Positions 6,143 to 56,566 of a stretch of DNA of 64,000 bases are shown piece after piece. The notes beneath the pieces were generated by a model that was given only the letters and a program-made list of their open reading frames with translations, did not search any database and was not told where the DNA came from. The position numbers were made by a program, and so were the translations under genes. Source of the DNA: Chthoniobacterales bacterium (GTDB lineage: Bacteria > Verrucomicrobiota > Verrucomicrobiia > Chthoniobacterales > UBA6821); contig JAIEQL010000032.1 in the NCBI GenBank assembly GCA_019747735.1, positions 6,159 to 70,158 on the forward strand, given 5' to 3'. The stretch's first letter is position 1, and each line of letters starts with the position of its first letter.

Positions 6143-6315
6143 TAGAGGATATTAAAAAATTCTGTAGCCGCGCATTGCGTCGTCGCTTCGGTGCTCGCTC
6201 CATCGATTATTGGCTATACACTCCCTCGCTGTGCGCCTCAGCTCCTGGCACTGCATCGACTACAAAAATTTTAATGATGCTCTAAAATGACTGTAGTTTT
6301 ATTTAAAATGCTCTA
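6143..6315 (+). mobile_element. MITE family A, copy 1 (173 bp, TA-flanked)
   Basis: Near-identical to 30101-30274 and to the reverse complement of 56177-56350. Ends are TAGAG.AT...ATGCTCTA. Confidence 0.92.
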
Positions 6316-7629
6316 GCGCTCCTCTTGCGAAGCCACATCAGCAATAGAATGCGGTTCTGTGCGTAATTCATGATCTGTCAATGCAGCATCCATGACTTTA
6401 CACGTCGCTAAGACTTTTTTGCACAAGAAGTAAGAGCAAAATTGAATCACAGCAACGAGACAAAGGATGTAACGCAGAGCAAAAATATCCGAAACATAAT
6501 AGGCTCCAGCAATAAAGAGGAGACCACCTGCAACGCGTCCCACATAAAGAGCAAACTCATTGTTCATAAGGTAAGCATATTTGTTCCGTTTCTCTTTGTT
6601 AGAAAGAATATCGATCACAAGCATCATCACAGGAGAAAAAGAACACTCGATAAATGCTCCGGCAACAATTTGACATGCTACAAAAATAAGAACTCCAGTG
6701 GCACTAAAGAGGATCATATTGGAGGCACAGCCAATCACAAAAAGCCCCAGACCGGTGAAGAGAATCCAGATGCGGTGCTTGGGAAGTGTGAGGCGTGCAA
6801 TGCCATAGAAAATAATCATCAAAATAACATTGCCACTACTATTGATCATGCCTAACGCACCTTCTTGACCACCGATGAGCTTGACTACCAGCATTGCTGG
6901 CGCCGTCACTAGAAAACCTTGTCCTATCCCACGAAGCGCTTCCATCCAGAGAACCTTGTACCAAAGAGGATCATATTTCCAATAAAGGAATTTACTCGCT
7001 TCGGGATTAGTAAATTTTCCCTGACAAACAATACAGGAAGCTACAAAAGCAAGAGTGATAGCACTCATAGCGACGTAAAAATAAGCGTGATTGCGATCGC
7101 CTCCAAACCACCCATACAGCTGGCTTCCAGCGATGAACCAACCAACCGTGATAGGAGCGACAATGGAGCAAAGCGTCCCAAGAGAATTCTCTAATCCATA
7201 ATAGTAATTGCGATTTCCATCAGTCGTACTGGCAAGAGCTAGGTAATCTCGATTAGCCCAAAACAATCCCATAGAGACACCAAAGAGACCTCCAGCCATC
7301 GCAATCCCACAGGCATTGAGGTCCTTGAGCGAAATCATGACTAGCAAAGAAAAGCCACTGATCAGCATTCCCAAAGAATAAAGATATTTGACAGGAATGA
7401 TTCTTAAAAGAAACCCGTTGCAACAAAACGCAATCAAAAGACCAGTATAATTAGCCATGGTAAAAGTCATCGCAAGACCTACATCATTATTGGTATTGCG
7501 CATGATGTAGACGCCTACAAAGGCCCAAATAACAGGTAGTACAGAGGCATACACAAAATTTGTGATGAGCAACGTACGCATATTGCGTGGGTAAGAGAGA
7601 AAGACTTTGAATTCTTTAAAGAGAGCCAT
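6313..7629 (-). CDS. MFS transporter
   Basis: About 12 hydrophobic segments in two halves, GLFWANR...T.D.NRNYY. ATG 7629 is the likely start, and the TAG stop coincides with the MITE A end. Confidence 0.8.
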   Translation of the reverse strand: MALFKEFKVFLSYPRNMRTLLITNFVYASVLPVIWAFVGVYIMRNTNNDVGLAMTFTMANYTGLLIAFCCNGFLLRIIPVKYLYSLGMLISGFSLLVMISLKDLNACGIAMAGGLFGVSMGLFWANRDYLALASTTDGNRNYYYGLENSLGTLCSIVAPITVGWFIAGSQLYGWFGGDRNHAYFYVAMSAITLAFVASCIVCQGKFTNPEASKFLYWKYDPLWYKVLWMEALRGIGQGFLVTAPAMLVVKLIGGQEGALGMINSSGNVILMIIFYGIARLTLPKHRIWILFTGLGLFVIGCASNMILFSATGVLIFVACQIVAGAFIECSFSPVMMLVIDILSNKEKRNKYAYLMNNEFALYVGRVAGGLLFIAGAYYVSDIFALRYILCLVAVIQFCSYFLCKKVLATCKVMDAALTDHELRTEPHSIADVASQEER

Positions 7630-7727
7630 GGTTTTGGTAGGTTTATAGTTGGTTATTAATTTACCGGAAGCACTGAAACAGCCTTCGCTTAGAACATATC
7701 GCTCTAGGAGAAGCAAGAAAAAAAAGT

Positions 7728-10265
7728 TTAGCTTGCAACAATATTCACTAACCGTCCCGGAACAATAATCACTTTTTCGATCTTCTTATTCTCGAGATGA
7801 GAGAGCAATGCCGGCTCTGCAAGCGCAGCCTTTTCTACAGCCTCTTTCGAAGCCGTTGAGGGCAAGGTAAGACGTGTGCGAACTTTTCCATTCACTTGCA
7901 CCGCGTAGGTCACTTCTTCAAAACAGAGATACTCTTCCTGCCATATTGGCCAAGGAGCTTGGGAAGCCAAGACAGCCACTGTTTTTAAGGAAGGAAATTT
8001 TTCAGCAAGAGAACTCCACAGCTCTTCGGCAAGATGAGGAGCAAAGGGGCTTAAGAGCTGAAGCAATATTTGAAGAGCCTCTAAGGGGCATAGCTTTGCA
8101 CTAGTAAACTCATTCACAAAAATCATCATCTGCGCAATGGCTGTATTAAAGGACAAGGCCTCGATATCTTTCGTCACTTTTTTAATCGTTGCGTGGACGG
8201 TTTTTTGTTGAGCGGAGGTCAATGGGGTCTCGGTCACATTTTCTGAAAGCGACCATTCACCAGGACCTTGTTCTTTCATCGCAAGTCGCCAGATACGCGC
8301 CAAGAATCGATAAATCCCCTCCACTCCTGTCGTGCTCCATGGCTTAGAATGTTCCAATGGCCCCATGAACATTTCAAAAAGACGCACCGCATCCGCACCA
8401 TATTGCTTGATGACCTCGCTAGGATTAACAACATTCCCACGGCTCTTGGACATTTTTTGTCCATCACTTCCCAAGATCATTCCTTGGTTAACGAGACGTT
8501 GGAAAGGCTCAACTGTTGTCAGGCACCCTAAGTCAAAAAGTGCTTTGTGCCAAAACCGAGCATAGAGCAAATGAAGCACCGCATGCTCTGTGCCGCCAAC
8601 GTAGAGGTCGACATTTTGCCAATAAGCTTCGGCCTCTTTGCCAATAAAATGCTGCCTGTTGTGAGGATCACAAAAACGAAGATAGTACCAGCAAGAGCCC
8701 GCCCATTGAGGCATGGTGTTGAGCTCGCGAGTGGCATTTTCAGAATAACGAACCCATTCCTTGGCCTTGGCAAGCGGCGGCTCTGCTGTTCCTGTCGGGC
8801 GAAAATCTTCCATCTCTGGCGGCCTGACAGGCAACTCCTCCAGCGAAAGAGCGCGATGTTTTCCCTCTTCCCACACAATTGGAAAAGGTTCTCCCCAATA
8901 GCGCTGACGAGAGAAAAGCCAATCGCGCAATTTGTATTGCATCACTCCGCGGCCCCAACCATGGGCCTCCAGCCATTTGATGATGATTGCTTTTGCTTCC
9001 GCTGCTGCCAATCCATTGACTAAGGGAGAATTGATTGCTTTTCCCTCAGTGAGACTAAAAGGAAGTGCAAGCTCAGAATCTGCCTCTATGACCACACGCA
9101 GCGGAAGTTGAAATTGTTGTGCAAATTCGTAGTCACGTTCATCGTGCGCTGGAACGGCCATCACGGCTCCTGTGCCATAGTGCATCAAGACATAGTCGGC
9201 AACCCAGATAGGAAGCGTCTCGCCGTTGATAGGGTTGATGGCCTCCACACCAAGAGGAATGCCTGTCTTAGTCTTAGCAAGGTCCGTGCGCTCAAGATCT
9301 TTCTTGGTACTACAACCCTCACGATAAGTTTTTAAATTTTCTTTAATAGCAGGAGAAAGCTGGAGCTGGTCAAGCAACGGATGTTCCGGAGCTAAGACAA
9401 GGTAAGTCGTTCCATAGAGCGTATCGACACGGGTCGTGAAGACAGTGATTTTTTGAGAGGGATTTTCTTTGATTGTAAAAATAACTTCGGCTCCTTCGCT
9501 TCGCCCAATCCAATTGCGTTGAAGCTGTTTGATCGATTCTGGCCAAGCAACTTTTTCTAAATCTTCAATCAAACGATCCGCAAGCGCCGTAATACGAAAC
9601 ATCCACTGGCGCATAGGACGTCGCTCTACAGGAAAACCACCAACGTCACTTTTGCCATCGACCACCTCTTCGTTAGCGAGAACCGTGCCCAAAGCGGGGC
9701 ACCAATTGACAGGCATCTCAGAAATGTAAGCAAGCCTGACAGCATCGACATCATCGCCATGATACGTTGAAATTGGTTCTACCTTGTTACTAGCGGGATT
9801 AACCCAAGCGTGATAGAGCTGAAGAAAAATCCATTGCGTCCAACGAAAATAGTCAGGATCTGTCGTATTGACCTCGCGCTCCCAATCGTAGCTAAAGCCG
9901 AGAGTTTGGAGCTGCCGGCGAAAGTTATTGATATTTTGTTCCGTAGTAACACGAGGATGTTGTCCAGTCTTAATGGCATATTGCTCCGCGGGGAGACCAA
10001 AAGCATCCCATCCCATCGGATGGAGCACGTTCTCACCACGCATCCGATAATAGCGAGAAAGAATATCAGTTGCGGTGTAACCGACAAGATGCCCTACATG
10101 CAACCCATCACCACTGGGGTAGGGAAACATATCGAGGATGTAGCGCTTTTTTTTCTTAGGATCAAAATCAACTTCCTCAGGATTGCGAGCATGAAACGCT
10201 CTAGAGCTTATCCAATGGCCTTGCCAGCGTGGTTCAAATTCAGAAAAAGGGTAACTATGATTCAC
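7728..10265 (-). CDS. leuS: leucine--tRNA ligase
   Basis: MFPYPSG.GLHVGH, GWDAFGLPAE, GTGAVMAVPAHD, SRQRYWG, KMSKS. Confidence 0.98.
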   Translation of the reverse strand: MNHSYPFSEFEPRWQGHWISSRAFHARNPEEVDFDPKKKKRYILDMFPYPSGDGLHVGHLVGYTATDILSRYYRMRGENVLHPMGWDAFGLPAEQYAIKTGQHPRVTTEQNINNFRRQLQTLGFSYDWEREVNTTDPDYFRWTQWIFLQLYHAWVNPASNKVEPISTYHGDDVDAVRLAYISEMPVNWCPALGTVLANEEVVDGKSDVGGFPVERRPMRQWMFRITALADRLIEDLEKVAWPESIKQLQRNWIGRSEGAEVIFTIKENPSQKITVFTTRVDTLYGTTYLVLAPEHPLLDQLQLSPAIKENLKTYREGCSTKKDLERTDLAKTKTGIPLGVEAINPINGETLPIWVADYVLMHYGTGAVMAVPAHDERDYEFAQQFQLPLRVVIEADSELALPFSLTEGKAINSPLVNGLAAAEAKAIIIKWLEAHGWGRGVMQYKLRDWLFSRQRYWGEPFPIVWEEGKHRALSLEELPVRPPEMEDFRPTGTAEPPLAKAKEWVRYSENATRELNTMPQWAGSCWYYLRFCDPHNRQHFIGKEAEAYWQNVDLYVGGTEHAVLHLLYARFWHKALFDLGCLTTVEPFQRLVNQGMILGSDGQKMSKSRGNVVNPSEVIKQYGADAVRLFEMFMGPLEHSKPWSTTGVEGIYRFLARIWRLAMKEQGPGEWSLSENVTETPLTSAQQKTVHATIKKVTKDIEALSFNTAIAQMMIFVNEFTSAKLCPLEALQILLQLLSPFAPHLAEELWSSLAEKFPSLKTVAVLASQAPWPIWQEEYLCFEEVTYAVQVNGKVRTRLTLPSTASKEAVEKAALAEPALLSHLENKKIEKVIIVPGRLVNIVAS

Positions 10266-10272
10266 AGGAAAA

Positions 10273-10441
10273 AAGTGGAAAGTTGAAGCTGAAAGTTGAA
10301 GTATAACAACGGGCCGCTAATGCCGCTAAACAATAAATTCTTTTGCCAAAAGAAAAATCGAAATATCTTTCATCTTCACTATAATATTTCAACTTGCTCG
10401 CAGAGCCTCGAAAGCTTCAACTTCAACTGTTACCTTCAACT
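10273..10441. repeat. AAGTTGA-periodic inverted arm pair (family G) between divergent leuS and rdgB
   Basis: aagtggaaagttgaagctgaaagttgaagt ... cttcaacttcaactgttaccttcaact. Confidence 0.75.
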
Positions 10442-10446
10442 TTTTT

Positions 10447-11043
10447 GTGAAAAAACTTCTCACCCTCTTCCTCGCTACCCGCAATGCCCACAAGACACGG
10501 GAGATTCAAACAATGCTTGGCGACACCATCATTGTTTCGGATGTCAATACCATCCCAACCTTACCGGAAGTCGAAGAAACAGGAACCACATTTGAAGCCA
10601 ATGCCATCCTCAAAGCAGAAGCTATTTCGATGCATGTTCCTGGTTGGGTCTTGGCTGATGACTCCGGACTAGAAGTCGATGCACTTGCAGGAGAACCTGG
10701 AATCTACTCTGCACGCTATGCAGGAATTGGTGCTAGCGATAGAGCTAATCTCGATCTTGTTTTAAAAAAAACGGAGCATGTTCCCTCTCCCAAGCGTACA
10801 GCACGTTTTCGCTGCGTCCTTGCTCTTGCCCAAGAAGGAAAAACAGTGGCTACATTTGAAGGAAGTGTCGAGGGAAGCCTGACAGAAAGCCTTTCTGGCA
10901 TAGGTGGCTTTGGATACGATCCTATTTTTATTCCCGAAGGATACACACAAACTTTTGGAGAACTTCCTGCTACACTCAAAAATGAGATTAGTCATCGGAG
11001 TCGGGCGCTGAAAGCTTTTAGAGAGTTCGTTAGCAGTGAATAA
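10447..11043 (+). CDS. rdgB: non-canonical purine NTP pyrophosphatase (RdgB/HAM1)
   Basis: ATRNAHK, EETG.TF..NA..KA, ADDSGL, PGIYSAR, GFGYDPIF, SHR. Confidence 0.97.
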   Translation: MKKLLTLFLATRNAHKTREIQTMLGDTIIVSDVNTIPTLPEVEETGTTFEANAILKAEAISMHVPGWVLADDSGLEVDALAGEPGIYSARYAGIGASDRANLDLVLKKTEHVPSPKRTARFRCVLALAQEGKTVATFEGSVEGSLTESLSGIGGFGYDPIFIPEGYTQTFGELPATLKNEISHRSRALKAFREFVSSE

Positions 11044-11069
11044 CTTTTCCTGTTCAGAAGATCTCAAGG

Positions 11070-12935: not shown

Positions 12936-12953
<18 letters not shown>
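11070..12953 (+). CDS. greA: long-form GreA/GreB family transcription elongation factor
   Basis: C-terminal ARSYGDLRENLEFKAAK, ILGAWD and ISYQ after an N-terminal extension of about 460 aa. The start may be 11091. Confidence 0.85.
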
Positions 12954-14431
<1,478 letters not shown>

Positions 14432-14565
14432 AAGCAAAGGGTGAAGCGTGAGGGGTAAAGAGTCGCTTCGTGGTGATTTAAAATTCTCGATTGCTTGCCA
14501 TTTAGGGCGTGCCATTAAAAACACAGTGTTTATTTTTTAGGATTTAATGTCGCTACTAAGCTAAC

Positions 14566-15130: not shown

Positions 15131-15145
15131 AAAATCCAAAAAACG

Positions 15146-23200: not shown

Positions 23201-23363
23201 TATAGTGGATTAAATTGAAAAGAGCGCTTTAGAAGCGCTGAATTTTTTCTTAAGACAAGGCTGAAGAGTTTAGGCTATCCAAAGATAACCTAAAGGATGA
23301 GAACACAGTCTTAAGGAAAAAGAGCAAGCTTATGATGTGCCCTTTTCAATTTAATCCACTATA
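23201..23363. mobile_element. MITE family C (163 bp) with Correia-like TATAGTGGATTAA termini
   Basis: tatagtggattaaattgaaaag is the exact reverse complement of cttttcaatttaatccactata (22-bp TIR). The right 52 bp recur at 37292-37343. Confidence 0.9.
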
Positions 23364-23506
23364 AGAGGGTGTCTTGAAAATGAATAAAATTGATGCAGTA
23401 CCAGGAGCGAAGCGCACAGACCCGCAGTGTATATGGACATACTCGAGGACGCGAGCACTGGAGCGACGCCGTAATGCGCAATTTTAGTCTTTTCAAGACA
23501 CCCTCT
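23364..23506 (+). mobile_element. MITE family B, copy 1 (RPE/WPE-like palindromic element)
   Basis: TIR agagggtgtcttgaaaa / ttttcaagacaccctct. A near-identical inverted copy is at 37149-37292. Confidence 0.92.
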
Positions 23507-23595
23507 AAATAGGAGAAGGTAGTAACCGCCTTGCTCTTTGTTACGAAGCAATTTCACTGTCTTCTTTAAAAAAAACTGTTACCCTGCCCAGCTTA

Positions 23596-26669: not shown

Positions 26670-26743
26670 GAGTGTTGCTGAGCAAGTCAGCAACACTAGT
26701 TCACAGTCTTCAATTTTTAACTTCAACTAGTTTGGAAAAATCC

Positions 26744-27715
26744 ATGACCCTCGTCCTTCTCGCAGCAGGCCTCGGAAGCCGTTATGGCGGGCTCAAACAG
26801 CTCACTCCCGTGGGACCGAAGGGAGAGGTGCTGCTCGATTATTCGGTGCGAGATGCCGTCAAGGCCGGCTTTTCAGAAATTGTTTTTATTATTCGAAGAG
26901 AGATTGAAGAGCTCTTTCAACAAAAAATTCTTTCTCGCTACCAAACTCTTTTTCCTGGTCTCATCATCCGCTACGTCTTTCAGGAACTCACTGATCTAGT
27001 TCCCCCTCACTTCTCCATCACACGGACTAAGCCATGGGGCACTGGTCATGCCTTGTTAGCAGCACGCCATGTTGTCACGACTCCTTTTGCGGTGATTAAC
27101 GCTGATGATTACTATGGTCCCACAGGCTTTGTGCTCCTCAAAAAGTTTTTTGAGAATTTCAGAAAAGGGGTCAGCACCAGTCAATTTGCAGACGCAGTCG
27201 CCAATTGCGGGACTGACCCTTTTTCTGAATACGCCATGGTCGCCTATGAGCTTGGCAAGACGCTTAGCGAGCATGGAAGCGTCTCTCGCGGCATTTGTGA
27301 AACTAGCAAAGGGGTCAGTACCAGTCAATTTGCAGACACAGTGGCCAATTGCGGGACTGACCCCTTTTTCCTCACTACCATTACCGAGCGCACCGCTATT
27401 GAGCGGACATCCCATGGGATTGTTGCTCAAGAAAAAGAGGGACAACTCATTCCTTTGAAAGAAGAGACTTGGGTCTCGCTCAACTTCTGGGGCTTCACAC
27501 CAGCCTTCTTCGCTCAACTCGAAGAAAAATTTTCTCAGTTTTTAGAAAAAGAAAAAAACTTAACAACTACTGAATTTTATCTCCCTCAAGCCATCAACGA
27601 CCTCATCCAGGAAAAACGGGCCTCTGTGCAGCTTTTCCCAACTCCTGATCGCTGGATGGGGCTGACTTATCCAGAGGATCTGGCTGTGGTGCAGGAAGCG
27701 TTAAGAAATCAATAA
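26744..27715 (+). CDS. sugar-phosphate nucleotidyltransferase family protein with two 20-aa palindrome-derived inserts
   Basis: LAAGLGSRYGGLKQ, KPWGTGHA, VINADDYYG, NFWGFTP, EFYLP, W.G.TY.ED. Confidence 0.9.
   Translation: MTLVLLAAGLGSRYGGLKQLTPVGPKGEVLLDYSVRDAVKAGFSEIVFIIRREIEELFQQKILSRYQTLFPGLIIRYVFQELTDLVPPHFSITRTKPWGTGHALLAARHVVTTPFAVINADDYYGPTGFVLLKKFFENFRKGVSTSQFADAVANCGTDPFSEYAMVAYELGKTLSEHGSVSRGICETSKGVSTSQFADTVANCGTDPFFLTTITERTAIERTSHGIVAQEKEGQLIPLKEETWVSLNFWGFTPAFFAQLEEKFSQFLEKEKNLTTTEFYLPQAINDLIQEKRASVQLFPTPDRWMGLTYPEDLAVVQEALRNQ
27164..27223. repeat. intragenic 60-bp palindromic element, copy 1
   Basis: aaaggggtcag...ctgaccctttt encodes KGVSTSQFADAVANCGTDPF in frame. Confidence 0.95.
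27308..27367. repeat. intragenic 60-bp palindromic element, copy 2
   Basis: Perfect 12-bp arms aaaggggtcagt/actgaccccttt; 56/60 identical to copy 1. Confidence 0.95.
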
Positions 27716-27745: not shown

Positions 27746-30010
27746 TTATTTTTGGTACTGAGAAGGAGTAAAAGAATTTACTGGTCTCTTTATTCGGTTT
27801 GAGCGTCTTGTTTCTAGAGGGGGCTGTTGTTGAGTTTCATAATCAGCAGGGCTAAAAAATTTTGCCTGTCTCAGTATCCGTCCTTTCAACGTTGTTTTGG
27901 GAGCATTACTATTTTTATTAGAGTCTTGTTCTGGAAGAGGAGTGTAAGGGGCTGTATGAATTAATCCAATCAATTCGTTAGGATCATTCACTGATGGAGT
28001 CCCTGATGGAGTCCGACTCAACTCATGAGTCGGTATAACAGCTTGAGACTCAGTCAAACTGGACGAAGAACCCCGAGGTGATTCGTTAGAAAGATTATCT
28101 GTTGAATTTGAGAGCACAATCGAGCCATCACCTGGAAGGCTTACTGGGTTTCCTGTGCCGACATCATTTGCTGTTTGGTTAAAGCGAGGGGAATCTACAG
28201 AGTCTTCTCTATCAGAATCAGAATCAGAATCATATCGAGGAGAACCTGGAGGATTTATACGGGAACTACTTGTTCTGTTGTAACGAGTTGGACGCTCTAG
28301 CGCATCGTCCTTGTTCCACCATTTCTTTATTGTGTTCCACAAGAACGCCGCAATGACGCTTGCAGGTAAAAAATGCCCTATATTCCATTCCCCTGACTCT
28401 AATTTTTTCTCTTGGTGGCCTTGAGCCTGTTCCTTAAAAACTGTTTCATTGCTTGAAGCCTCTGGATGTTTTTCTTCAATAGGCCCTCCATTTTCTGAAA
28501 CAGAAGAATCATTAGCCACTCTTTTTAATTCTTCGAGGACTTCTTTGGGAAGCTTTTCTTCAGGTTGTGAAGAATTATTATCTCCCTTTTGACTCAATTT
28601 GCCTTTCTCATCTAGAGTTTCTAAAAATGCCAAAACATCATAATCCGTCGTAGTTAATGGGTAGGCACCATGAGAAGTTATAGAAATAAAATTGCTTGGA
28701 GACTCTTGATCATGATGAGCTGAGTTACCTCCTTGAAAACGGCTCTTTATCTGAATTACTGGTTCGTCAGAACCAGATTCAGTCATAGGAATAAAACTTC
28801 TTAGAGACGCTTGATTATGATGAGCCGAGTTACCTCCTTCAAAAGAGCCCGTTATCTCAATTGCTGACTCGTTATAATGAGTTCCAGTTCTAGAAATAAC
28901 CTGACTTAAAGACCCTTGATCATGATGTGCCGAGTTACCTCCTTTAAAAGGGTCCGTGATCTTAATTGCTGAGTTGTTATCATGAGTTCCAGCTATAGAA
29001 ACCCAATCTTGATTATCTTGGTCCACAGGACGCCTAATATACTTGCTTAGAACCTGGTTACGTTCTTTCACCCCATCTAAATGAACATAAGGATGGAAAA
29101 ATACCGAATCGCCAGGTGTTAGTACGGGAAGCTTAGAATTCACGTAATTCATCAAGGGTTTATAATCAAGCTGACTAAAGATCGTGACAAGACCTAGTAG
29201 AGTAGTAGTCCTAAGTAGTTGTAGTCGCTTTGACCCAGGGAAATGGGTACGCGTATCATTTTTGTTTTTATTAACTTGTTCATTTGTTTTGACAGGCACT
29301 GCTTCTGGATCATTTCTATTTGCATGAAACTCACCCTCTTCTTCAAATTTACTTTTTGTATTTGATAATATTAGTTCTTTAAAAAGATGTTTGGAGGGTT
29401 CTTCCTGATTGCGGGTTATATCATTCTGGGAAGAGCTTTTTACAATATCTTCGAGTTGACTCACCAAATCAGAAGTGACCTCAATAAGTTGTTCTAGCTT
29501 CTGCTGAACTGAAAGGTCCAAATCGCTAGAAGCGCTAGAAACTAATTTTTCAAGATTGTTATATTTCTGTTGGTATCTCTCTAGATTGTAAGACGATAGC
29601 AGTAGATCGTCTTGAATGTCTCTTAGATTCACTGTTACATTTGAAGAGGAAACATTTCCTAGCTCTTCTTTAGCCTCTTCTATTTTTGTATCTAGCACTC
29701 CTACATCAAAAAGATCCTCAGCCTCACTATCAGTATCTTTCGAAGAATCTGACTCACCAGCAACACTCTCCTCATCATGATCACTTCCTTCCTCTTTTAA
29801 TAGCGTCTTATTAGAAACCGGAATAGCATAGGAAGCATGACTGGTGAGAGCCTTCTCCTGTGCTTTTTTACTAGCTTCTTGCACATTATCTTTTTCAACG
29901 GACTCACCCCCATTTTCACCTTCTTTTTTCCCCTCCATCACTGCCACAGAGAGGCGTGATGAGGCGATCAAGAGGGTAATTAAAAATAATAATAGAGAGA
30001 TTTTTTTCAC
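27746..30010 (-). CDS. orphan signal-peptide-bearing low-complexity protein with three 35-aa repeats
   Basis: Long ORF; GTG 30010 gives VKKISLLLFLITLL. It has acidic and coiled-coil regions, two short hydrophobic stretches and 105-bp repeats. Confidence 0.8.
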   Translation of the reverse strand: MKKISLLLFLITLLIASSRLSVAVMEGKKEGENGGESVEKDNVQEASKKAQEKALTSHASYAIPVSNKTLLKEEGSDHDEESVAGESDSSKDTDSEAEDLFDVGVLDTKIEEAKEELGNVSSSNVTVNLRDIQDDLLLSSYNLERYQQKYNNLEKLVSSASSDLDLSVQQKLEQLIEVTSDLVSQLEDIVKSSSQNDITRNQEEPSKHLFKELILSNTKSKFEEEGEFHANRNDPEAVPVKTNEQVNKNKNDTRTHFPGSKRLQLLRTTTLLGLVTIFSQLDYKPLMNYVNSKLPVLTPGDSVFFHPYVHLDGVKERNQVLSKYIRRPVDQDNQDWVSIAGTHDNNSAIKITDPFKGGNSAHHDQGSLSQVISRTGTHYNESAIEITGSFEGGNSAHHNQASLRSFIPMTESGSDEPVIQIKSRFQGGNSAHHDQESPSNFISITSHGAYPLTTTDYDVLAFLETLDEKGKLSQKGDNNSSQPEEKLPKEVLEELKRVANDSSVSENGGPIEEKHPEASSNETVFKEQAQGHQEKKLESGEWNIGHFLPASVIAAFLWNTIKKWWNKDDALERPTRYNRTSSSRINPPGSPRYDSDSDSDREDSVDSPRFNQTANDVGTGNPVSLPGDGSIVLSNSTDNLSNESPRGSSSSLTESQAVIPTHELSRTPSGTPSVNDPNELIGLIHTAPYTPLPEQDSNKNSNAPKTTLKGRILRQAKFFSPADYETQQQPPLETRRSNRIKRPVNSFTPSQYQK
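28680..28998 (-). repeat. intragenic tandem repeat, 3 x 105 bp
   Basis: The anchor tgat.atgatg.gc.gagttacctcctt starts at 28707, 28812 and 28917 and encodes GGNSAHH(D/N)Q. Confidence 0.9.
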
Positions 30011-30100
30011 GATTCTTAGTAAATAAATTTGGGAGTTGAGAAGAATACTTTTTTTGGCTGATAAAGCAAGAGAATATCTCAAAATAGAGATTTTTTCTCT

Positions 30101-30274
30101 TAGAGCATATTAAAAAATTCTGTAGCCGCTCATTGCGTCGTCGCTTCGGTGCTCGCTCCATGGAGTATTGGCTATATACTCCCTCGCTGTGCGCCTCGGC
30201 TCCTGGCACTGCATCGACTACAAAAATTTTTAATGATACTCTAAAATGGCTGTAGTTTTATTTAAAATGCTCTA
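30101..30274 (+). mobile_element. MITE family A, copy 2 (174 bp)
   Basis: TAGAGCAT...ATGCTCTA ends; near-identical to the other two copies. Confidence 0.93.
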
Positions 30275-37148: not shown

Positions 37149-37292
37149 AGAGGGTATCTTGACAATGAATAAGATTGCGCATTACGGCGTCGCTCCAGTG
37201 CTCGCGTCCTCGAGTATGTCCATATACACTGCGGGTCTGTGCGCTTCGCTCCTGGTACTGCATCAATTTTATTCATTTTCAAGACACCCTCT
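37149..37292 (-). mobile_element. MITE family B, copy 2
   Basis: Reverse complement of 23364-23506, with differences confined to one terminus. Confidence 0.92.
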
Positions 37293-37343
37293 AAGGAAAA
37301 AGAGCAAGCTTATGGCGTGCCTTTTTCAATTTAATACACTATA
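37292..37343 (+). mobile_element. truncated right end of MITE family C
   Basis: taaggaaaaagagcaagcttatggcgtgcctttttcaatttaatacactata matches 23312-23363. Confidence 0.88.
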
Positions 37344-37475
37344 ACTACCAACGGCATTAATTTTTCTCCTTAATTAGGATGCGGGGTCAGTCTATAAAAT
37401 GATGAAGTAATGAAGCTAACCCCACCTCTCAAAAAATTTATTTAATGACGTTAGTAGTTACCAAAAGATAAAAAA

Positions 37476-40382: not shown

Positions 40383-40394
40383 GCGGATTGAATA

Positions 40395-40696
40395 AGATTA
40401 ACAGGGATGGAAACGATAGATAAAGAAATTCGGGTTACTTCTGTTCAAAATAAGAATAAGAAATAGCCACAAAAGAACACAAAGAAACACAAAGAAAAAG
40501 GCTCGTTGTTTTTTAAAAAAGTTAGCTAATTATTCTTATTGCATTTTTTCAGTTACTTATAAGCAACTGAAAAGGGAAGAAGACTTTTTAAGGAAACTTA
40601 ATGTTTTTATTTAGCATCTTTGCGTTTCTTTGTGTTCTTTTGTGGCTATTCATTTTTTCTGCCATCCCTTCCATCGCTTCCATCCCTGTTAATCTC
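40395..40696. repeat. three nested inverted repeats (family E outer, family H middle, 28-bp palindrome inside)
   Basis: E arms 40395-40417 / 40673-40695 (22/23); H arms 40462-40495 / 40617-40650 (33/34); palindrome 40546-40573. Confidence 0.92.
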
Positions 40697-40722
40697 TTAT
40701 AAATTTCTATCTCTGTTAATCC

Positions 40723-47923: not shown

Positions 47924-47950
47924 CCCGAGTTTTGCTATCTGACAAAGGTA

Positions 47951-48117
47951 TATATAGTCAAATTACTTAGAAATTACACAAAATTGACTTGATCTTTCCA
48001 GGAAAAGACTGCGTTCTCATTACTCCCGTTATAAGATATAGCGCTCGCTCTTCGGCCTTGCCTTTTCTAAAAATCTCTGCGTTCTTTCATGTAATTTCTA
48101 AGTAATTTGACTATATA
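47951..48117. mobile_element. MITE family D (about 165 bp, perfect 28-bp TIR, TA-flanked)
   Basis: tatatagtcaaattacttagaaattaca / tgtaatttctaagtaatttgactatata; the core is related to family C. Confidence 0.9.
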
Positions 48118-49055: not shown

Positions 49056-49063
49056 ATTTTCTA

Positions 49064-51487: not shown

Positions 51488-51496
51488 CCCGACTTC

Positions 51497-52393
51497 ATGA
51501 TCATCGCTGAGGCCATAGAAAAACTCTTGCTCTATTTGGCAACAGAACGCGGGCTTTCTACGAATTACCAACTTTCAACGCGCGCTTCGTTGGAGCGTTT
51601 TACCTCATGGATAAACGATTCCAAGGGCATTAATGAACCTTCTGCCATCACACCGCAGCATCTTCATGATTTTTTAATGGCGGAAAAAAAACGCGGACTA
51701 GCAACCACCTCTCTTAAATTAGAAGTTGTCGCGCTGCGCATTTTTTTTCGCTTTCTCTGTGCTCGCAATTTTCTCTCCATCGATCCTGCTGAAAAGTTGC
51801 CACTTCCACGCCTCCCTCATCTTTTGCCACAGCCTCTTTCTAAACAACAAATCGAACAACTTCTGGCCACACCTCAAGAAAAAACCTCCCTTGGCTTAAG
51901 AGACAAAGCAATCCTAGAGCTCCTCTATGCCTGCGGCCTTCGCATTTCTGAGCTGTGCCAAGCACGGTTGGAACAACTCAATTTAGAAGAGGGAATGATT
52001 CGTGTTACAGGAAAAGGAAACAAAACCCGCCTTGTTCCCATCGGTCGTGCAGCCTCGCAGGCTCTTGAACACTATCTTACAACAGCACGCCCTCAACTGA
52101 TTTCGCCAAAATCAGGAGCTGCCATTTTTCTTTCCGTGCGCGGCCACCCGCTCACCCCTGCACGCATTTGGCAGCTGGTCAACTCCTATGCTAAGCAAGC
52201 AGGGCTTCCAGCAATGGTCCACCCTCATCAACTCCGACACTCTTTTGCCACACACCTTCTTTCAGGAGGAGCAGACCTGCGCATCATCCAAGAACTCCTC
52301 GGACATGCGAGCATTGCCACGACTCAAATTTACACACAGGTCGATTGTGAACAGCTCAAAGCTATTCATCAGCAATTTCATCCGAGAGGATAA
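51497..52393 (+). CDS. xerD: site-specific tyrosine recombinase XerD/XerC
   Basis: RDKAILELLYACGLRISEL, GKGNKTR, HQLRHSFATHLL.GGADLR, LGH...TTQIYT, HPR. Confidence 0.85.
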   Translation: MIIAEAIEKLLLYLATERGLSTNYQLSTRASLERFTSWINDSKGINEPSAITPQHLHDFLMAEKKRGLATTSLKLEVVALRIFFRFLCARNFLSIDPAEKLPLPRLPHLLPQPLSKQQIEQLLATPQEKTSLGLRDKAILELLYACGLRISELCQARLEQLNLEEGMIRVTGKGNKTRLVPIGRAASQALEHYLTTARPQLISPKSGAAIFLSVRGHPLTPARIWQLVNSYAKQAGLPAMVHPHQLRHSFATHLLSGGADLRIIQELLGHASIATTQIYTQVDCEQLKAIHQQFHPRG

Positions 52394-52440
52394 ACCTTTC
52401 TCAAATGAATTTTAGAAATTTTTACTGGTTCTTTTTTGTG

Positions 52441-52468
52441 CTGGGTTTCTGCCTACCCAGGAATGACG
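52441..52468 (-). repeat. degenerate dRS3-like repeat
   Basis: Reverse complement reads cgtcattcctgggtaggcagaaacccag. Confidence 0.55.
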
Positions 52469-52542
52469 TGTTCTCATCGGTGCTGTTTCGGTATAAAATA
52501 AATTTATTGATCAAGAGGCCGCTTCTAGCTCATTGTTAATGG

Positions 52543-53376
52543 ATGAATGAACATACCTGCTGTTGTAAAGAAAATGATAATTGCTGTTGTGAAAAGTGCA
52601 CTTGTTGCAAACCTCTTGCAGGAAAAGTAGGCGTCGTCTTTGGCGTTGCTAACAAACGCAGCATTGCCTGGGCCATTGCAAAGGCCTGGCATCGTTCCGG
52701 AGCCAAGCTGTTATTTAACTATCAAGGTGATCGGCTCAAAGAAAATGTCGAAGAGCTCACCAGTGAATTTGGCTCCGATGTTTTTCTCCATCCTTGTGAT
52801 GTTTCAAGCGACGAGCAGATAGCGCATTTTTTTAATAAAGTTCGTGAACATACTCCCAAACTTGATCTTTTGCTTCACTCGGTAGCTTTTGCTCCTAAGG
52901 ACGCTTTAGAAAATGATTTTCTCTCTACGTCGCGAGAAGCCTTTTTAACCTCTCACAATATCAGCGCCTATTCTCTTGTAGGGCTTGCTCGGGAAGCAGC
53001 TCCCCTCATGACTGAGGGAGGAAGCATGATTGCCATGACTTATTATGGCTCCACCAAAGTTGTCCCTCACTACAATGTCATGGGTGTTGCCAAAGCCTCT
53101 TTAGAAGCCACTACGCGTTACTTGGCTTATGATTTGGGAAAGAAAAAAATTCGAGTCAACTGCATCAGCGCAGGCCCTCTCCAAACCTTGGCTGCACGTG
53201 GTGTTTCTGGGTTCTCTGCCATGATCAAACATTACGAAGAGCATGCTCCTCTTGGGCGCACATGCACTCATGATGAAATTGGTCATACTGGTGTTTTTCT
53301 AGCTAGCGATTGCTCTTCGGGCATGACGGGACAGGTTATTTACGTCGATGGTGGTTATGAAATCATGGGAATGTAG
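52543..53376 (+). CDS. fabI: enoyl-ACP reductase with a Cys-rich N-terminal leader
   Basis: GVANKRSIAW.IA, HSVAFAP, YNVMGVAKASLE, ISAGP, VDGG. Confidence 0.96.
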   Translation: MNEHTCCCKENDNCCCEKCTCCKPLAGKVGVVFGVANKRSIAWAIAKAWHRSGAKLLFNYQGDRLKENVEELTSEFGSDVFLHPCDVSSDEQIAHFFNKVREHTPKLDLLLHSVAFAPKDALENDFLSTSREAFLTSHNISAYSLVGLAREAAPLMTEGGSMIAMTYYGSTKVVPHYNVMGVAKASLEATTRYLAYDLGKKKIRVNCISAGPLQTLAARGVSGFSAMIKHYEEHAPLGRTCTHDEIGHTGVFLASDCSSGMTGQVIYVDGGYEIMGM

Positions 53377-53394
53377 AGACTGTTTTGCAGCCTC

Positions 53395-53530
53395 AGTTCG
53401 CAGTTGGCAGTAGTTTTGAGCCTTACTGCCTAGTATTAGTTACAACTGCAATCGGTAATCCGATATGACACTCTTGAGTTCTACTCTTTCCGTCACTTTG
53501 AAAATCATTGGCAGCTGGCAACTGACAACT
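53395..53530. repeat. family J inverted arm pair
   Basis: agttcgcagttggcagtag ... gcagctggcaactgacaact. Confidence 0.65.
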
Positions 53531-53541
53531 CTCACTATCTA

Positions 53542-54930
53542 GTGATGAAGAACTCGCACCGCAAGGCCCTGCTCAACCTCTTAAGCGATCCTTCTTCCGT
53601 CATTGAGGATTTAGAAACACGAAAAGAGCTTGGCAAGGATCATTGGTTTGTAGCCGCAGTGCCCGAGATTGCTGTTGCTCCGACAACTTCGGAAGAAGTC
53701 GCAGCGGTTCTTGGTTATGCCAACGAACACAAAATCCCTGTCACCACGCGTGGCGCTGGTTATGGATATGTGGGAGGATGTGTCCCTGTGCAAGGCGGCA
53801 TCTTACTTTCTACAAATCGTCTCAATCGCATTCTAGAAATTAGCAAAGAAGATTTTGTAGCTGTTACCCAACCAGGGGTAATCACAGGTCACCTTCAAAA
53901 AGCTGTTCAAAAAAAAGGGCTTTTTTATCCACCTGACCCAGCCAGTCTGGAGCATTGCAGCATTGGTGGAAACATCGCTACTAATGCTGGTGGTCCACGT
54001 TGCTTAAAATATGGAGTCACGCGTCCTTATGTCCTGGGATTACAAATCGCTCTTGCAGATGGGTCCTTGGTGCGCCTGGGAGGACGAACTCATAAAAACA
54101 AGACCGGTTTTGATTTGATCGGTATGTTTGTCGGATCGGAAGGATTGTTGGGCATCGTCACCGAAGCCACATTGCGTCTTCTTCCACAGCCACCAGCCCG
54201 AGCTGTACTCTCTGCTGGTTTTGCTTCCATGAAGACTGCCACAGCTGCCGTGCAAAAAATCTTTGCGGCTGGTTACCTGCCTGCGGCAGTCGAAATAGCT
54301 GATCACTTCACACTAGAAGCCGCACGTAGTCATGTTCCAGCTCGCCAGCGGGCCATGATTCCTCAAGGAGAAGCCCATTTACTCCTTGAGATCGATGGTC
54401 AAGCTGGAGCAGTCAAAAGCGATGCTAAGGAACTCCAACAGTTTCTTCAAAAAATAAAAGCACTCGATGTTAGTTGCGCTACTTCCCCACAAGAATGTAA
54501 TCACCTGTGGGCCTTGCGCCGTGCTTTTTCCGCCTCACTGCGAGCAACAGGACTAATTAAACTGAACGAAGATATCGTCGTCCCCCGCGGCCGATTGCTT
54601 GATTTGATCAACTTCACAGAGCAATTGCATCGCCGTACTGGTTTTCCTATCGCCTGTTTTGGGCATGCAGGCGATGGAAACATCCATGTCAACATCATGG
54701 TTTCCGAGCAAGAGCAACAATTAGAGAGCAAAAAAATAGAGAGCCTTTTAGATGAACTCTTCACTCAAGTCTTGGCCTGGGGTGGCGCCATCACTGGTGA
54801 ACATGGCATTGGCATTGCTAAGCTCGCTTGGTGGAAGATGGCTACCACTCCGGAACTACGCGAGCTTCACCAAAAAATAAAAGGAACACTTGATCCGCAT
54901 GGCATTTTGAATCCTGGAAAATTTGTTTGA
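53542..54930 (+). CDS. FAD-linked oxidase, GlcD / D-2-hydroxyacid dehydrogenase family
   Basis: YPPDPAS, GGNIATNAGG..CLKYGVT, GSEG.LG, FGHAGDGNIH, GEHGIG, LNPGK. Confidence 0.92.
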   Translation: MMKNSHRKALLNLLSDPSSVIEDLETRKELGKDHWFVAAVPEIAVAPTTSEEVAAVLGYANEHKIPVTTRGAGYGYVGGCVPVQGGILLSTNRLNRILEISKEDFVAVTQPGVITGHLQKAVQKKGLFYPPDPASLEHCSIGGNIATNAGGPRCLKYGVTRPYVLGLQIALADGSLVRLGGRTHKNKTGFDLIGMFVGSEGLLGIVTEATLRLLPQPPARAVLSAGFASMKTATAAVQKIFAAGYLPAAVEIADHFTLEAARSHVPARQRAMIPQGEAHLLLEIDGQAGAVKSDAKELQQFLQKIKALDVSCATSPQECNHLWALRRAFSASLRATGLIKLNEDIVVPRGRLLDLINFTEQLHRRTGFPIACFGHAGDGNIHVNIMVSEQEQQLESKKIESLLDELFTQVLAWGGAITGEHGIGIAKLAWWKMATTPELRELHQKIKGTLDPHGILNPGKFV

Positions 54931-54955
54931 ACCGAATATTTCGTCTAAATAACGC

Positions 54956-56053
54956 ATGAAACTTAAAAATAAGAACAATCCTTTTTCTATTACAAACGTT
55001 TCCGCATGGCCTCTGAAAGCTGCTTTAAATCAGCCTTTCCGGATTGCTACAGGAGAGCATGCTGTCGTAGAGAATGTTTTTCTCAGCATCACCCTAGCTG
55101 ACGGAAGCACTGGTTTTGGCGAAGCTGCTGTGGCAACCCACATTACGGGTGAGACCATTGAGCAAACGCTCCAGAACCTTCAATCCAGCGCTTCCTGGCT
55201 CGAAGGAAAAGCGGCTACTGATTATTTAACAATCTCGACACACCTCCATGAACGACTTGTCGGCAATCATTGTGCTTTAGCAGCCCTTGAAATGGCCCTC
55301 TTAGATGCACTCACACGCTCGCTACGATTGCCACTCTGGCGCCTCTGGGGATCTCAAGCCAAGCCGCTGCATTCCGATGTCACGATCGTCATCGCCTCCC
55401 TCGAAGAGACCCAAGAAAAAACGAAGCAATTTTATGAGCAAGGATTTCGTTCCTTTAAAATAAAAATAGGAAGCGATCACGATCTCGATGTTCAGCGCAT
55501 TCAAGCGGTCAAAAAAATTATTAAAAAAGCCCCTCTTCTCCTTGATGGGAACCAAGGCTACAGCGCTCCAGAAGCGATCAAACTGATTAAAATATTAAAA
55601 CGTCATGGCATTGGGGTGGATCTTTTTGAACAGCCGGTGCCAAGAGATGATTGGGAGGGACTTCAAAAAATTGGTCGTGATACTGGCATTTGCATTTGCG
55701 CGGATGAGAGCGCCTCAAGCACGGAAACTGCTTTGCTCTTAATGAAGAAAAAAATGGTCGGTGCTATCAATATTAAGCTCATGAAAACAGGACTCATTGA
55801 TGCACTAGAGATCAGTCGCTGGGCTCGAGCTTATGGCATCAAGCTGATGATCGGTGGGATGGTGGAGTCTAACCTTGCCATGATGGCCTCGGCTCATGTG
55901 GCCACAGCCTTAGGTTGTTTTGATTTTATTGATCTCGACACTCCTTTCTTCATTAAAAAAGAAGTCGCTCGCAACCCCTTCCTCAGCCGTAATGGAATTT
56001 ATGACCTGAGCAATGTCAAAGCCGGCATTGGCATTGTGCCGAAAAAGAAATAG
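54956..56053 (+). CDS. dipeptide (L-Ala-D/L-Glu) epimerase, enolase superfamily
   Basis: PFRIA, KIKIG, D.NQGY, EQP, ADES, NIKLMK, G.M.ES, DLD. Confidence 0.9.
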   Translation: MKLKNKNNPFSITNVSAWPLKAALNQPFRIATGEHAVVENVFLSITLADGSTGFGEAAVATHITGETIEQTLQNLQSSASWLEGKAATDYLTISTHLHERLVGNHCALAALEMALLDALTRSLRLPLWRLWGSQAKPLHSDVTIVIASLEETQEKTKQFYEQGFRSFKIKIGSDHDLDVQRIQAVKKIIKKAPLLLDGNQGYSAPEAIKLIKILKRHGIGVDLFEQPVPRDDWEGLQKIGRDTGICICADESASSTETALLLMKKKMVGAINIKLMKTGLIDALEISRWARAYGIKLMIGGMVESNLAMMASAHVATALGCFDFIDLDTPFFIKKEVARNPFLSRNGIYDLSNVKAGIGIVPKKK

Positions 56054-56139
56054 CCGCAAAAGAACACAACGAGCACAAAATTAAGCCGTAGTAAATCTTA
56101 GATTTTGAAAACGTAAGCGAGATATGTTTATCGTTCTCG

Positions 56140-56566
56140 ATTCGTTACGAATGGGACGATCAAAAAAATGAACTACTAGAGCATTTTAAATAAAACTACA
56201 GCCATTTTAGAGCATCATTAAAAATTTTTGTAGTCGATGCAGTGCCAGGAGCTGAGGCGCACAACGAGGGAGTGTATAGCCAATACTCGATGGAGCGAGC
56301 ACCGAAGCGACGACGCAATGAGCGGCTACAAAATTTTTTAATATGCTCTAAAACAAGAGCGAGGTATTTCTTTTGAAGAGATTGAGTGGGCTCTTGAGAA
56401 TCGACCTCTTTTAGGAAAAGCATTTAACCCACAGCATCCAAAACAAATTATTCTTCTCATAGAAATCGATCACTACGTTTGGGCTATTCCTACTGAGCAA
56501 CGCGGCAAAAAAACTCGGCTCATCACAGCCTATCAAAGCCGAAAATTTACAAAAAAATATTTATGA
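56140..56566 (+). pseudogene. BrnT/DUF4258-like toxin gene interrupted by MITE A
   Basis: Removing 56179-56350 restores IRYEWDDQKNELLKQERGISFEEIEWAL...TRLITAYQSRKFTKKYL*. The stop overlaps the next ATG (ATGA). Confidence 0.85.
56177..56350 (-). mobile_element. MITE family A, copy 3 (174 bp including both TA)
   Basis: Reverse complement of 30101-30274; the TA of codon CTA is duplicated on both sides. Confidence 0.95.

Follow-up and report, generated by a model that had tools for sequence, protein, structure and literature searches.

In plants, MITEs of the Stowaway type are related to Tc1/mariner transposons and flanked by TA, and those of the Tourist type are related to PIF/Harbinger transposons and flanked by TNA; to our knowledge, no Stowaway-type and Tourist-type families with a common interior have been reported. 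In some SINE superfamilies, a conserved central module carries interchangeable heads and tails and is spread by the machinery of different autonomous elements. Among bacterial repeats, the Rickettsia palindromic element RPE-1 is a hairpin-forming mobile repeat of about 140–150 bp, and we know of no transposase partner of the RPEs. A highly conserved central domain is ascribed, in the available excerpt of the source, to the SINE superfamilies CORE, V, and Deu (PMC6887750). Bacterial type II MITEs, as presented in the accessible part of a review (PMC10969869), resemble insertion sequences (IS) only in the terminal repeats. Like the elements analyzed in this work, they are small, non-coding, and multicopy, carry terminal inverted repeats, generate target duplications, share no interior sequence with the partner IS, and use a transposase acting in trans; unlike the type II MITEs covered in that part, the elements described below include one interior module common to families with ends from two IS families, and the same text mentions neither “chimer” nor “different transposase”. 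As far as the available sections of the paper go, the coral CMITEs (Wang et al. 2010, PMC2872659) are a published precedent: full-sized elements are found in tandem arrays, new elements arise via insertion of one into another, and all CMITE families retain the piggyBac end motif, i.e., they belong to one transposase superfamily. Tandem arrays of full-sized elements are also formed by one of the families described here (B), but, unlike the CMITEs, our elements are bacterial, carry ends of two families (IS630 and IS5), and have a core structure backed by covariation. Literature searches on chimeric, hybrid, nested, and type II MITEs and on end replacement revealed no case from bacteria in which a single core is combined with ends of two IS families and, like those on MITEs in Verrucomicrobia, yielded no description of the A/B family.

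The window analyzed in this work (i.e., the whole stretch of 64,000 nt) comes from a freshwater verrucomicrobial genome (G000). Eight copies or fragments of four repeat families, A to D, had been listed for it in a preliminary description, and all of them were found in their places (Table 1), together with every string quoted there and with the ends assigned to the families (TAGAGCAT for A, (A)GAGGGTGTCTTGAAAA for B, and TATAGT for both C and D). The elements have the features of MITEs: they are short (141–174 nt), contain stop codons in most frames, have arms that pair with each other, and occur in many near-identical copies (93–100% identity within one family). The lack of a cognate transposase in the window was also corroborated, as no match to PF01609, PF13359, PF13340, or PF13358 was obtained on contig C53, which carries it. 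These repeats are probably non-coding MITEs moved in trans, of which A and B are built on one 88-nt module with ends of two IS families, and C and D represent one diverged IS630-type lineage.

Table 1. Repeat elements identified in the window. For the A copies, the strand is that of the “top” strand of the core (GATGCAG...).
Element	Position	Strand	Length and features
A copy 1	6143..6315	-	about 173 nt; IS630-type ends TAGAG.AT...
A copy 2	30101..30274	-	174 nt; TA at each side
A copy 3	56177..56350	+	174 nt; opposite orientation to A copies 1 and 2
B copy 1	23365..23505	+	141 nt; IS5-type ends GAGGGTGTCTTGAAA...; 88-nt core at 23392-23479
B copy 2	37150..37291	-	142 nt; inverted
C	23201..23363	-	163 nt; IS630-type MITE, ends TATAGTGGATTAAATTGAAAAG...; C/D core inside
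C fragment	37292..37344	+	right-hand 53 nt of C; 92% identity to 23312-23364
D	47953..48115	+	163 nt; IS630-type MITE, ends TATAGTCAAATTACTTAGAAATTAC; C/D core inside

The three A copies of the window share 95–97% pairwise identity, and the second of them is composed of a left inverted repeat, the 88-nt core, an inner right repeat, and a third, outer copy of the repeat. The two B copies are 96% identical. The first one is flanked by TAA on both sides (23362–23364 and 23506–23508), and the flanks of the second one are unequal (TCA vs. TAA); this second copy adjoins a C copy, which it truncates.

When reverse-complemented A was compared with B, the 88-nt centre could be aligned with 71 of 91 columns identical (78%), and only 48–57% identity (from ungapped to gapped alignment) was found in the arms. 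The local score of the core alignment was 70, compared with 16.3 ± 2.4 in dinucleotide shuffles, and the likeness claimed for the two cores was upheld in this check, since none of the 1000 shuffles reached the real score. The core runs from an invariant GATG to ..GCGC. It had been called palindromic, which holds only in a loose sense, as the cores are imperfect hairpins and not true palindromes. The A/B core was found across one verrucomicrobial genus, where it is accompanied by many further arm types, and the arms of all members of the A/B superfamily have GAG at the tip and a run of A. The core is no part of either partner IS (described below): BLAST searches of A–D against five IS elements gave matches at the ends only, apart from MITEs nested in three of the IS. 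The core HMM gave no match in the sequences flanking related transposases of other phyla, and blastn of B against a plasmid collection gave no match either.

The ends of A match the inverted repeats of an IS630-family IS located elsewhere in the same genome (contig C34) at 20–23 of 27 positions, compared with 11–14 of 27 for the C- and D-type IS630 ends and only 7–9 of 27 for the IS5-type end (in the last case the comparison is off register by one to two bases). This partner of A is apparently complete. The stop codon of its transposase falls within the right repeat, and the repeat therefore belongs to the IS; an end of the same type is also present in two other genomes (G002 and G012). The IS630-type partners of A, C, and D are recognized by the Pfam models HTH_Tnp_IS630 and DDE_3. 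Among near-full A copies, TA was found on the left side in 18 of 19 and on the right side in 17 of 19. A, C, and D combine the end match and the TA duplication of MITEs derived from IS630/Tc1-mariner elements and, in having IS630/Tc1-related partners, resemble Stowaway. Another candidate partner of A, an IS of G002 (locus L014) lying between TAGAGCAT ends, was rejected, as it turned out to be an IS4-like IS that has CACNACTGTCCGG ends of its own and had entered a 44-nt A-type mini-palindrome.

In the case of B, each arm begins with 15 nt that agree at every position with the left inverted repeat of an IS in the congeneric genome G002 (contig C20), which is a metagenome-assembled genome, 86% complete. 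This IS is flanked by TAA on each side and contains two reading frames (179 and 101 aa) across a run of A, with DUF4096 and DDE_Tnp_1/DDE_Tnp_1_2 domains; relatives of its transposase in other phyla are associated with GAGGGTGTC..AAA ends and TNA-type flanks. Ends could be placed by a script in 76 of 122 copies in the genome carrying the window, and exact TNA flanks were found in 38 of these 76 (TTA in 13, TAA in 11, TGA in 7, and TCA in 7). Furthermore, where a B copy has inserted into D, it is flanked on both sides by a TTA that is single in intact D. B thus shows both the end match and the 3-bp TNA duplication of an IS5-family-derived MITE, and resembles Tourist in its IS5/Harbinger-related partner and in the length of the duplication. 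Many rarer arm types are without a match to any IS, the IS5-type assignment being made there via a loose consensus (GAGnnTGTnnnAAAAT) and a few TNA flanks. No IS5-type partner of B was found in G000 itself, an assembly of 57 contigs, many of which break in B, and because of these breaks the result is no proof of absence; although this search gave no partner, the B copies are 96–99% identical. A truncated IS5-type gene on contig C29 was considered as a partner and dismissed, its ends being unrelated, and PF13359 (Harbinger-type DDE) had no match in the genome.

Taken together, for A and B the claim that one core is carried with ends for different transposases was supported by the IS630 vs. IS5 ends, by the TA vs. 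TNA duplications, and by the absence of the core from the partner IS; i.e., a homologous core is combined with ends of different transposase families. This shows that small non-coding mobile elements can be rebuilt from interchangeable parts.

With the core HMM, 165 matches were obtained in the 1.9-Mb genome, of which 125 are near full length, and 52 C/D cores were found. Among 123 full copies there were 52 pure B and 19 pure A, as well as at least six A/B chimeras, two with the left arm of A and the right arm of B and four with the left arm of B and the right arm of A; in all of them the switch lies within the core. Nested intermediates were also identified. A 129-bp element (INTERMEDIATES), which has an end of the IS5 type on one side and of the C type on the other, interrupts the C-type IS of G002 and is flanked there by a TA duplication; the same IS in G010 represents the empty site. 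This element was also found next to the right end of the IS5-type IS, on its inner side. Target-site duplications are thus documented with filled and empty sites (TNA, TA, TTA in D, and the G002/G010 pair), as expected of MITEs.

On this basis, three lineages of IS630-family transposase would act in trans on A, C, and D, with duplication of TA, and an IS5-family transposase on B, with duplication of TNA, and the copies may still be mobile. New combinations of ends and cores would most likely arise by two routes, i.e., by nesting, in which elements land in or beside each other and in the ends of IS, and by recombination within the shared core, which would give the observed chimeras. Nesting may be favoured because the A+T-rich ends themselves serve as TA/TNA targets. 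The arm/core junction is located at the identical nucleotide in every family, an observation not predicted by random nesting with later deletion and hinting that the ends are attached to the core in a more specific manner. The core itself may persist because the element profits from a compact, strand-specific hairpin regardless of the transposase by which it is moved.

The situation is different for C and D. The reported resemblance of reversed C to D was reproduced, although it is weaker than that of A and B (43 of 62 positions of the core, 69%; z = 4.3; 3 of 1000 shuffles reaching the score). As for the ends, which had been said to differ beyond TATAGT, both families do carry TATAGT, but the ends (17 of 27 positions identical, 63%) are no less alike than the interiors (63–69%). 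The ends of C match their IS630 partner at 22–25 of 27 positions and the left end of D matches its own at 27 of 27 (the right end of D was scored off register); these partners are two sister IS630 elements with DDE parts 77% identical. The claim that the C/D core had been re-fitted with different ends was consequently not supported, as equally diverged ends and interiors and sister partners are what gradual divergence from one ancestral end would give, and no core joined to ends of different transposase families is present here. To judge from the sequences, the C and D families have diverged together with two sister IS630 elements.

The same explanation could be extended to all the families, which would then descend without any exchange of modules from one ancestral MITE, with the ends drifting gradually and the centre changing more slowly. 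C and D fit it well, the GAG tip and the run of A are common to all A/B-superfamily arms, and the arms of A and B are still 48–57% identical; the arms of A and B had even been taken for gradual variants of one GAG...AAAAT end, an idea dropped after the IS630 partner was found. We nevertheless consider such an origin of A and B improbable, as their ends match IS of different Pfam transposase families (20–23 of 27 positions of A agree with the IS630 end and only 7–9 with the IS5 end) and their target duplications differ. Moreover, there are two types of apical loop, each found with B-like, A-like, and other arms, so that one tree does not fit, and chimeras occur. It could also be proposed that the core was present earlier as a dispersed hairpin repeat attracting insertions, and that the ends are remnants of IS which landed beside it. 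Insertions of IS and of other elements into these repeats do occur: the IS4-like IS mentioned above sits in A-type pieces, MITEs are nested in IS ends, and an unrelated element was found at the same position of the core in 6 of 80 metagenome loci, with right arms of three kinds. However, the two arms of each element correspond to each other as inverted repeats and lie between equal target duplications (exact TNA in half of the placeable copies), whole elements of 141–174 nt are 95–99% identical in many places and hence moved as units, and none of the 165 core matches lacks arms, degraded or truncated copies aside, all of which makes this origin very improbable.

The claim that the conserved unit is the structured core was supported for A/B, as the imperfect hairpin shows compensatory changes also in an independent set of sequences. 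In 29 representatives from G000, 19 pairs of the core were 96% canonical with 55 compensatory cells, compared with 5–12 in slid controls and at most 25 in 500 shuffles; when applied to 46 independent sequences, taken from metagenomes and from other genomes, this structure was 96% canonical with 91 compensatory cells, compared with 3–18 in slid controls and at most 47 in shuffles. The ratio of G-T to A-C cells was 39:10 and 19:6, i.e., wobble is favoured on one strand, and the copies are oriented unequally (58:31). Both biases point to a strand-specific role, which would be needless for a pure passenger. The core also contains invariant unpaired motifs and purine-rich internal loops, and its column entropy is 0.56–0.79 bits, compared with 1.31 in the arms.

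These features could be explained if the core benefited the host, as a structured RNA (a small RNA or a cis-acting element of mRNA) or a protein-binding single-stranded DNA hairpin, with the transposon ends as mere vehicles. The covariation repeated on the independent set, the unpaired motifs and loops, the favoured folding of one strand, the low entropy, and the persistence of the core across species of the genus with many arm types would all agree with such a function. We regard it as unlikely, however, since the copies are located in every gene context, including 17 of 126 within ORFs (according to crude ORF calls), and, between co-directional genes, the well-folding strand is more often antisense (37) than sense (19). 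In addition, no Rfam match at the gathering score was obtained in the window (only chance-level ones at E up to 10), and no site resembling a promoter or a terminator was found above chance in A or B. Each of the 12 congeners contains between 0 and about 100 copies, a variation more in keeping with a selfish element than with a gene that is needed, and templated repair can give palindromes compensatory changes without selection.

The top-strand frame of the core was compared with 18,950 NCBIfam models, and the sole match was RPE1 (TIGR01045), with E = 3.8e-4 for B and 7e-6 for another variant. The scores, 20.4 and 25.9 bits, do not reach the curated cut-off of 30, and only positions 14–36 of the 48 in the model are covered. 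There are 30 such RPE1-like places in the genome, and those checked among the matches listed fall in A/B cores. The A/B elements are similar to RPE-1 as hairpin-forming mobile repeats of comparable size. It is conceivable, though rather doubtful, that the A/B core is a self-contained, strand-specific structured module (RNA or single-stranded DNA), distantly related to the centre of the Rickettsia RPE-1, kept by selection and repeatedly hitching onto unrelated transposon ends. If so, it would correspond, in bacteria, to the conserved central domains of SINEs and have a function of its own, e.g., raising the frequency of transposition for any transposase or being recognized by a protein of the host or of a mobile element. 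The A/B core is like these domains in forming the conserved centre of elements with interchangeable ends; SINEs, however, are animal retroposons, and here the elements are bacterial DNA. Should selection act on the core, these repeats would offer a tractable bacterial system for studying why some non-autonomous elements, such as the coral CMITEs or SINEs with core domains, keep a conserved centre.

Families of MITEs are usually defined by their ends, and the interiors are taken as junk. In the A/B elements it is the interior that is the stable, structured part, and the ends were swapped between two transposase families, which becomes visible only through matching them to the partner IS. The classification of repeats by their ends alone is therefore misled by such elements. 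It is also worth mentioning that these repeats break assemblies, many contigs of the present one ending in B.

All eight A-D pieces (A, B, C, and D being small non-coding MITE families, i.e., mini-transposons with terminal inverted repeats, probably moved in trans by partner IS transposases) that the preliminary description had placed in the window were recovered at their positions by repeat search and direct reading (see table). Each of them is intergenic relative to the window ORFs of at least 150 aa, and the nearby genes include leuS, ppk1, mlaE, rpoD, icd, and ligA. The window covers 6159-70158 of contig C53 in the host genome (G000), which comprises 1.9 Mb in 57 contigs and is 97% complete.

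Locations of MITE copies, nested or inserted elements, and other repeats (G, genome, G000 being the host; C after a colon, contig; L, genome or metagenome locus)
Feature	Location	Basis or remark
A	window 6143-6315	repeat search and direct reading
A	window 30101-30274	repeat search and direct reading
A, inverted	window 56177-56350	repeat search and direct reading
B	window 23365-23505	repeat search and direct reading
B, inverted	window 37150-37291	repeat search and direct reading
C	window 23201-23363	repeat search and direct reading
C fragment, 53 nt	window 37292-37344	repeat search and direct reading
D	window 47953-48115	repeat search and direct reading
Hairpin in left arm of C	window 23223-23239	terminator-like (AGCGCTTTAGAAGCGCT), followed by T-run, both strands
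64-nt palindromic repeats, GGGGTCAG...CTGACCCC type	window 27161-27224, 27305-27368	92% identical, spacing 144 nt, within span of ORF 26672-27715
105-nt unit, three in tandem	window 28676-29001	copies 73-78% identical to the first; inside ORF 27746-30082 (-), which had no match to NCBIfam models
AGTTTGAGTTTGAGT...CGCGAAGCGCGAAG palindromes	window 4415-4521, 61777-61818	small repeat family
Inverted repeats of ATCCCTTCCATCGCTTC	window 1909-2051, 40390-40716	small repeat family
B head-to-tail arrays	G000:C47:104-405; G000:C46:9646-9947; G000:C12:1-229; G000:C46:50683-50866	outside window
129-bp element	L039 1098-1247	TA-flanked
129-bp element	L094 (G002:C24), IS coordinates 776-906	TA-flanked
IS4-like IS	L013 (G012:C138); L014 (G002:C79); L015 (G007:C178); L010 (sister genus)	
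Element ending ...GGCAGCCCCGCAGGGGCGAGC	L125, L132, L133, L140, L143, L168	

The alignment of reverse-complemented A with B revealed a common 88-nt centre with 71 of 91 columns identical (78%), the local score of which (70) was reached by none of 1000 dinucleotide shuffles (16.3 +/- 2.4), so that the similarity of the A and B cores is indeed better than in shuffled controls; when one of the two was turned to the opposite orientation, it was only at chance level. The arms of A and B, compared by gapped alignment of A+T-rich 27-mers, are 48-57% identical, and the IS families to which they correspond differ in both Pfam transposase domains and target duplications. Judged from these comparisons, A/B is modular, a common core being combined with ends from two IS families, and for this pair the earlier proposal of one core fitted with the ends of different transposases (IS630 and IS5 partners) holds. 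BLAST searches of A-D against the five IS elements gave matches at the ends only, besides MITEs nested inside three of them, so the A-D cores are not IS-derived; with IS likeness confined to the ends, A-D are type II MITEs by the definition given in PMC10969869.

The partner of the B ends is an IS5-type element of about 1.06 kb in the congeneric genome G002 (contig C20), which starts with GAGGGTGTCTTGAAA; both B arms have exactly this sequence as their first 15 nt. Two frames of this IS, joined at an A-run, encode DUF4096 and DDE_Tnp_1/DDE_Tnp_1_2 domains; the IS is flanked by TAA on each side and has two further partial copies in the same genome. Relatives of its transposase (Chlamydiales, Finniella, Chloroflexia, Acidovorax, and others) belong to elements with GAGGGTGTC..AAA ends and TNA-type flanks. 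Identical TNA was found on both sides of 38 of the 76 full G000 copies (out of 122) whose ends could be placed by script (TTA 13, TAA 11, TGA 7, TCA 7), and where B had been inserted in a D copy, the single TTA of the intact D became two.

The A ends match a 935-bp IS of G000 (contig C34) with the repeats TAGAGAATTTTAAATAAAGTTATAGCC and TAGAGTATTTTAAATAGAGTTATAGCC, TA on each side, and HTH_Tnp_IS630 and DDE_3 domains in two frames. The repeat belongs to this IS, because the stop codon falls inside the right repeat, and the same type of end also lies 3' of the transposase gene in G002 and in another genome (G012). The outer right and left arms of A agree with the repeats of this IS at 23/27 and 20/27 positions, respectively, as opposed to only 7-9/27 with the IS5-type end (a comparison off register by 1-2 bases). 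Among 19 near-full A copies, TA was present on the left in 18 and on the right in 17 (pattern YTA...TAR). The IS630-type repeat occurs in A three times (left, inner right, and outer right), and 141-nt forms with two repeat copies are also present. An IS4-like element (389-aa transposase, ends CACNACTGTCCGGTTAAAAG) was found inserted in A-type pieces, one of its sites being a 44-nt mini-palindrome of two A-type ends and another an A-type core.

The preliminary description had extended the exchange of ends to C and D, and here it is not borne out. The C and D cores share 43 of 62 positions (69%), a score reached by 3 of 1000 shuffles and thus weaker than for A/B, while the ends (17/27, 63%) are as similar as the interior without the ends (63%). 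IS630-family elements in G002 and another genome (G010) end in TATAGTCAATTAAATTGAAAAGGGCAC and match C at 22-25/27 positions, and others end in TATAGTCAAATTACTTAGAAATTACAC, identical to the D left end at 27/27 (the D right end was scored off register). These partners are sisters, with DDE parts 77% and DNA-binding parts 46% identical, compared with only 34% (DDE) and 25-29% (DNA-binding) between them and the A-type IS. As read from the alignments, C/D is not modular, and its ends and interior diverged together with sister IS elements; gradual divergence of one ancestral end had itself been named in the preliminary description as speaking against exchanged ends. The overall interpretation is thus partly supported, being right for A/B and wrong for C/D. 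The partner IS elements, the derivation of the A/B ends from two families, the rejection of modularity for C/D, the chimeric copies, and the covariation test on an independent set are what the present analysis adds.

The mixed-arm copies and elements inserted in one another (chimeras, INTERMEDIATES) bear on the same question. Among 123 full A/B copies, 52 are B and 19 are A throughout, two are A-left/B-right, four are B-left/A-right with the switch within the core, and two further ones combine the A left arm with another type of right arm; D/C chimeras are also present. Both types of apical loop, AGTGTATA..ATACTCGA and AGCGTATTGAAATACGTGA, are found combined with B-like, with A-like, and with further arms, and therefore a single tree cannot explain both arms and loops. 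A 129-bp element that has an IS5-type end on one side and a C-type IS630 end on the other lies, with a TA duplication, inside the C-type IS of G002, the orthologous IS of G010 having an empty site; the 129-bp element was also found just inside the right end of the IS5-type IS. The B inner arm (TGAATAAAATTG) is similar to the C-type repeat (GTGTATTAAATTG), which suggests that older ends may be layered beneath newer ones. An unrelated element ending in ...GGCAGCCCCGCAGGGGCGAGC occupies the same A/B core site (approximately model position 26) in 6 of 80 metagenome loci; the core itself seems to be targeted, as this position is kept despite three right-arm types.

For the fold, 46 representatives (<88% identity) were selected, and 17 chimeric, truncated, or heavily inserted ones were dropped. 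RNAalifold predicted one long interrupted hairpin for the remaining 29, the 19 core pairs of which were 96% canonical and included 55 cells in which both sides had changed, as compared with 5-12 for structures slid by 1-3 columns and a mean of 15.8 (maximum 25) in 500 column shuffles. Since this structure was derived from the same 29 sequences, it was then tested on an independent set, for which 54 full cores had been taken from other genomes and from metagenome contigs and reduced to 46 by removal of near-duplicates; here 96% of the pairs were canonical and 91 cells were compensatory (slid controls 3-18; shuffles, mean 35, maximum 47). The sequences of both sets are related, so these shuffle comparisons are not probabilities. 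For A/B, the compensatory changes support the structured core proposed earlier. The internal loops between the pairs are conserved and rich in purines, with GA/AG in opposition among them, GATG at the arm/core border is invariant, and column entropy averages 0.56-0.79 bits across the core versus 1.31 in the arms.

G-T cells exceed A-C cells, by 19:6 among the G000 cores and by 39:10 in the independent set, which indicates the GATGCAG... strand as the better folder. Among 126 A/B copies, this strand is antisense in 37 and sense in 19 located between co-directional genes; 25 lie between convergent and 17 between divergent genes, 11 at contig ends, and 17 inside ORFs (crude calls). By local GC skew, it is the C-rich strand in 58 copies, the G-rich one in 31, and ambiguous in 37 (binomial p = 0.0055). 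This bias may reflect either insertion bias or selection.

The core had no match in Rfam, and no promoter-like or terminator-like sites above chance were found in A or B. In a scan of the core's top-strand frame against the complete NCBIfam set (18,950 models), RPE1 (TIGR01045) was the sole match, and of 30 sub-threshold RPE1 places in the genome, the listed ones compared with the core table fall in A/B cores. The match is confirmed and RPE1 membership is not, as the scores (B, 20.4 bits; another variant, 25.9 bits) are below the cut-off of 30.

HMM searches located the A/B core in 165 places of the genome (125 near full length) and the C/D core in 52. Compared with the window copy that served as query, the near-full A copies are 92-100% identical; the listed B copies are 96-100% identical, many contigs end within B, and about 30 single or rare variants have recognisably the same centre with different arms. 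The exact A/B core pattern was present in G000 and 10 of 12 congeneric genomes, and in none of 12 sister-genus genomes or 16 from other families in this order; a looser pattern was found in 2 of 401 sampled phylum genomes, both of the same genus, and in none of the remaining 399 (183 other genera), these surveys being exact-pattern searches of genome samples, so that the core may exist elsewhere. The looser pattern also occurred in 91 stretches of metagenome contigs. The AGTTTGAGTTTGAGT...CGCGAAGCGCGAAG and ATCCCTTCCATCGCTTC motifs recur beside numerous MITE copies in other parts of the genome.

No description of these verrucomicrobial elements, nor of a bacterial core common to IS630-type and IS5-type MITEs, was found by literature searches. 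Coral CMITEs (PMC2872659) have been described as having an interior better conserved than their ends, as forming tandem arrays of complete elements, and as giving rise to new elements by nesting; they keep a piggyBac end motif in all families, whereas the A/B ends come from two IS families. SINE superfamilies with conserved central domains (PMC6887750) are a further analogy. In the B arrays, which resemble those of the coral elements, a B copy truncated at position 133, B(1-133), is joined through a 26-nt linker (TTGTGAGATGAGATAGGTTGGTAGTT) to a full B, and this junction is identical in several contigs.
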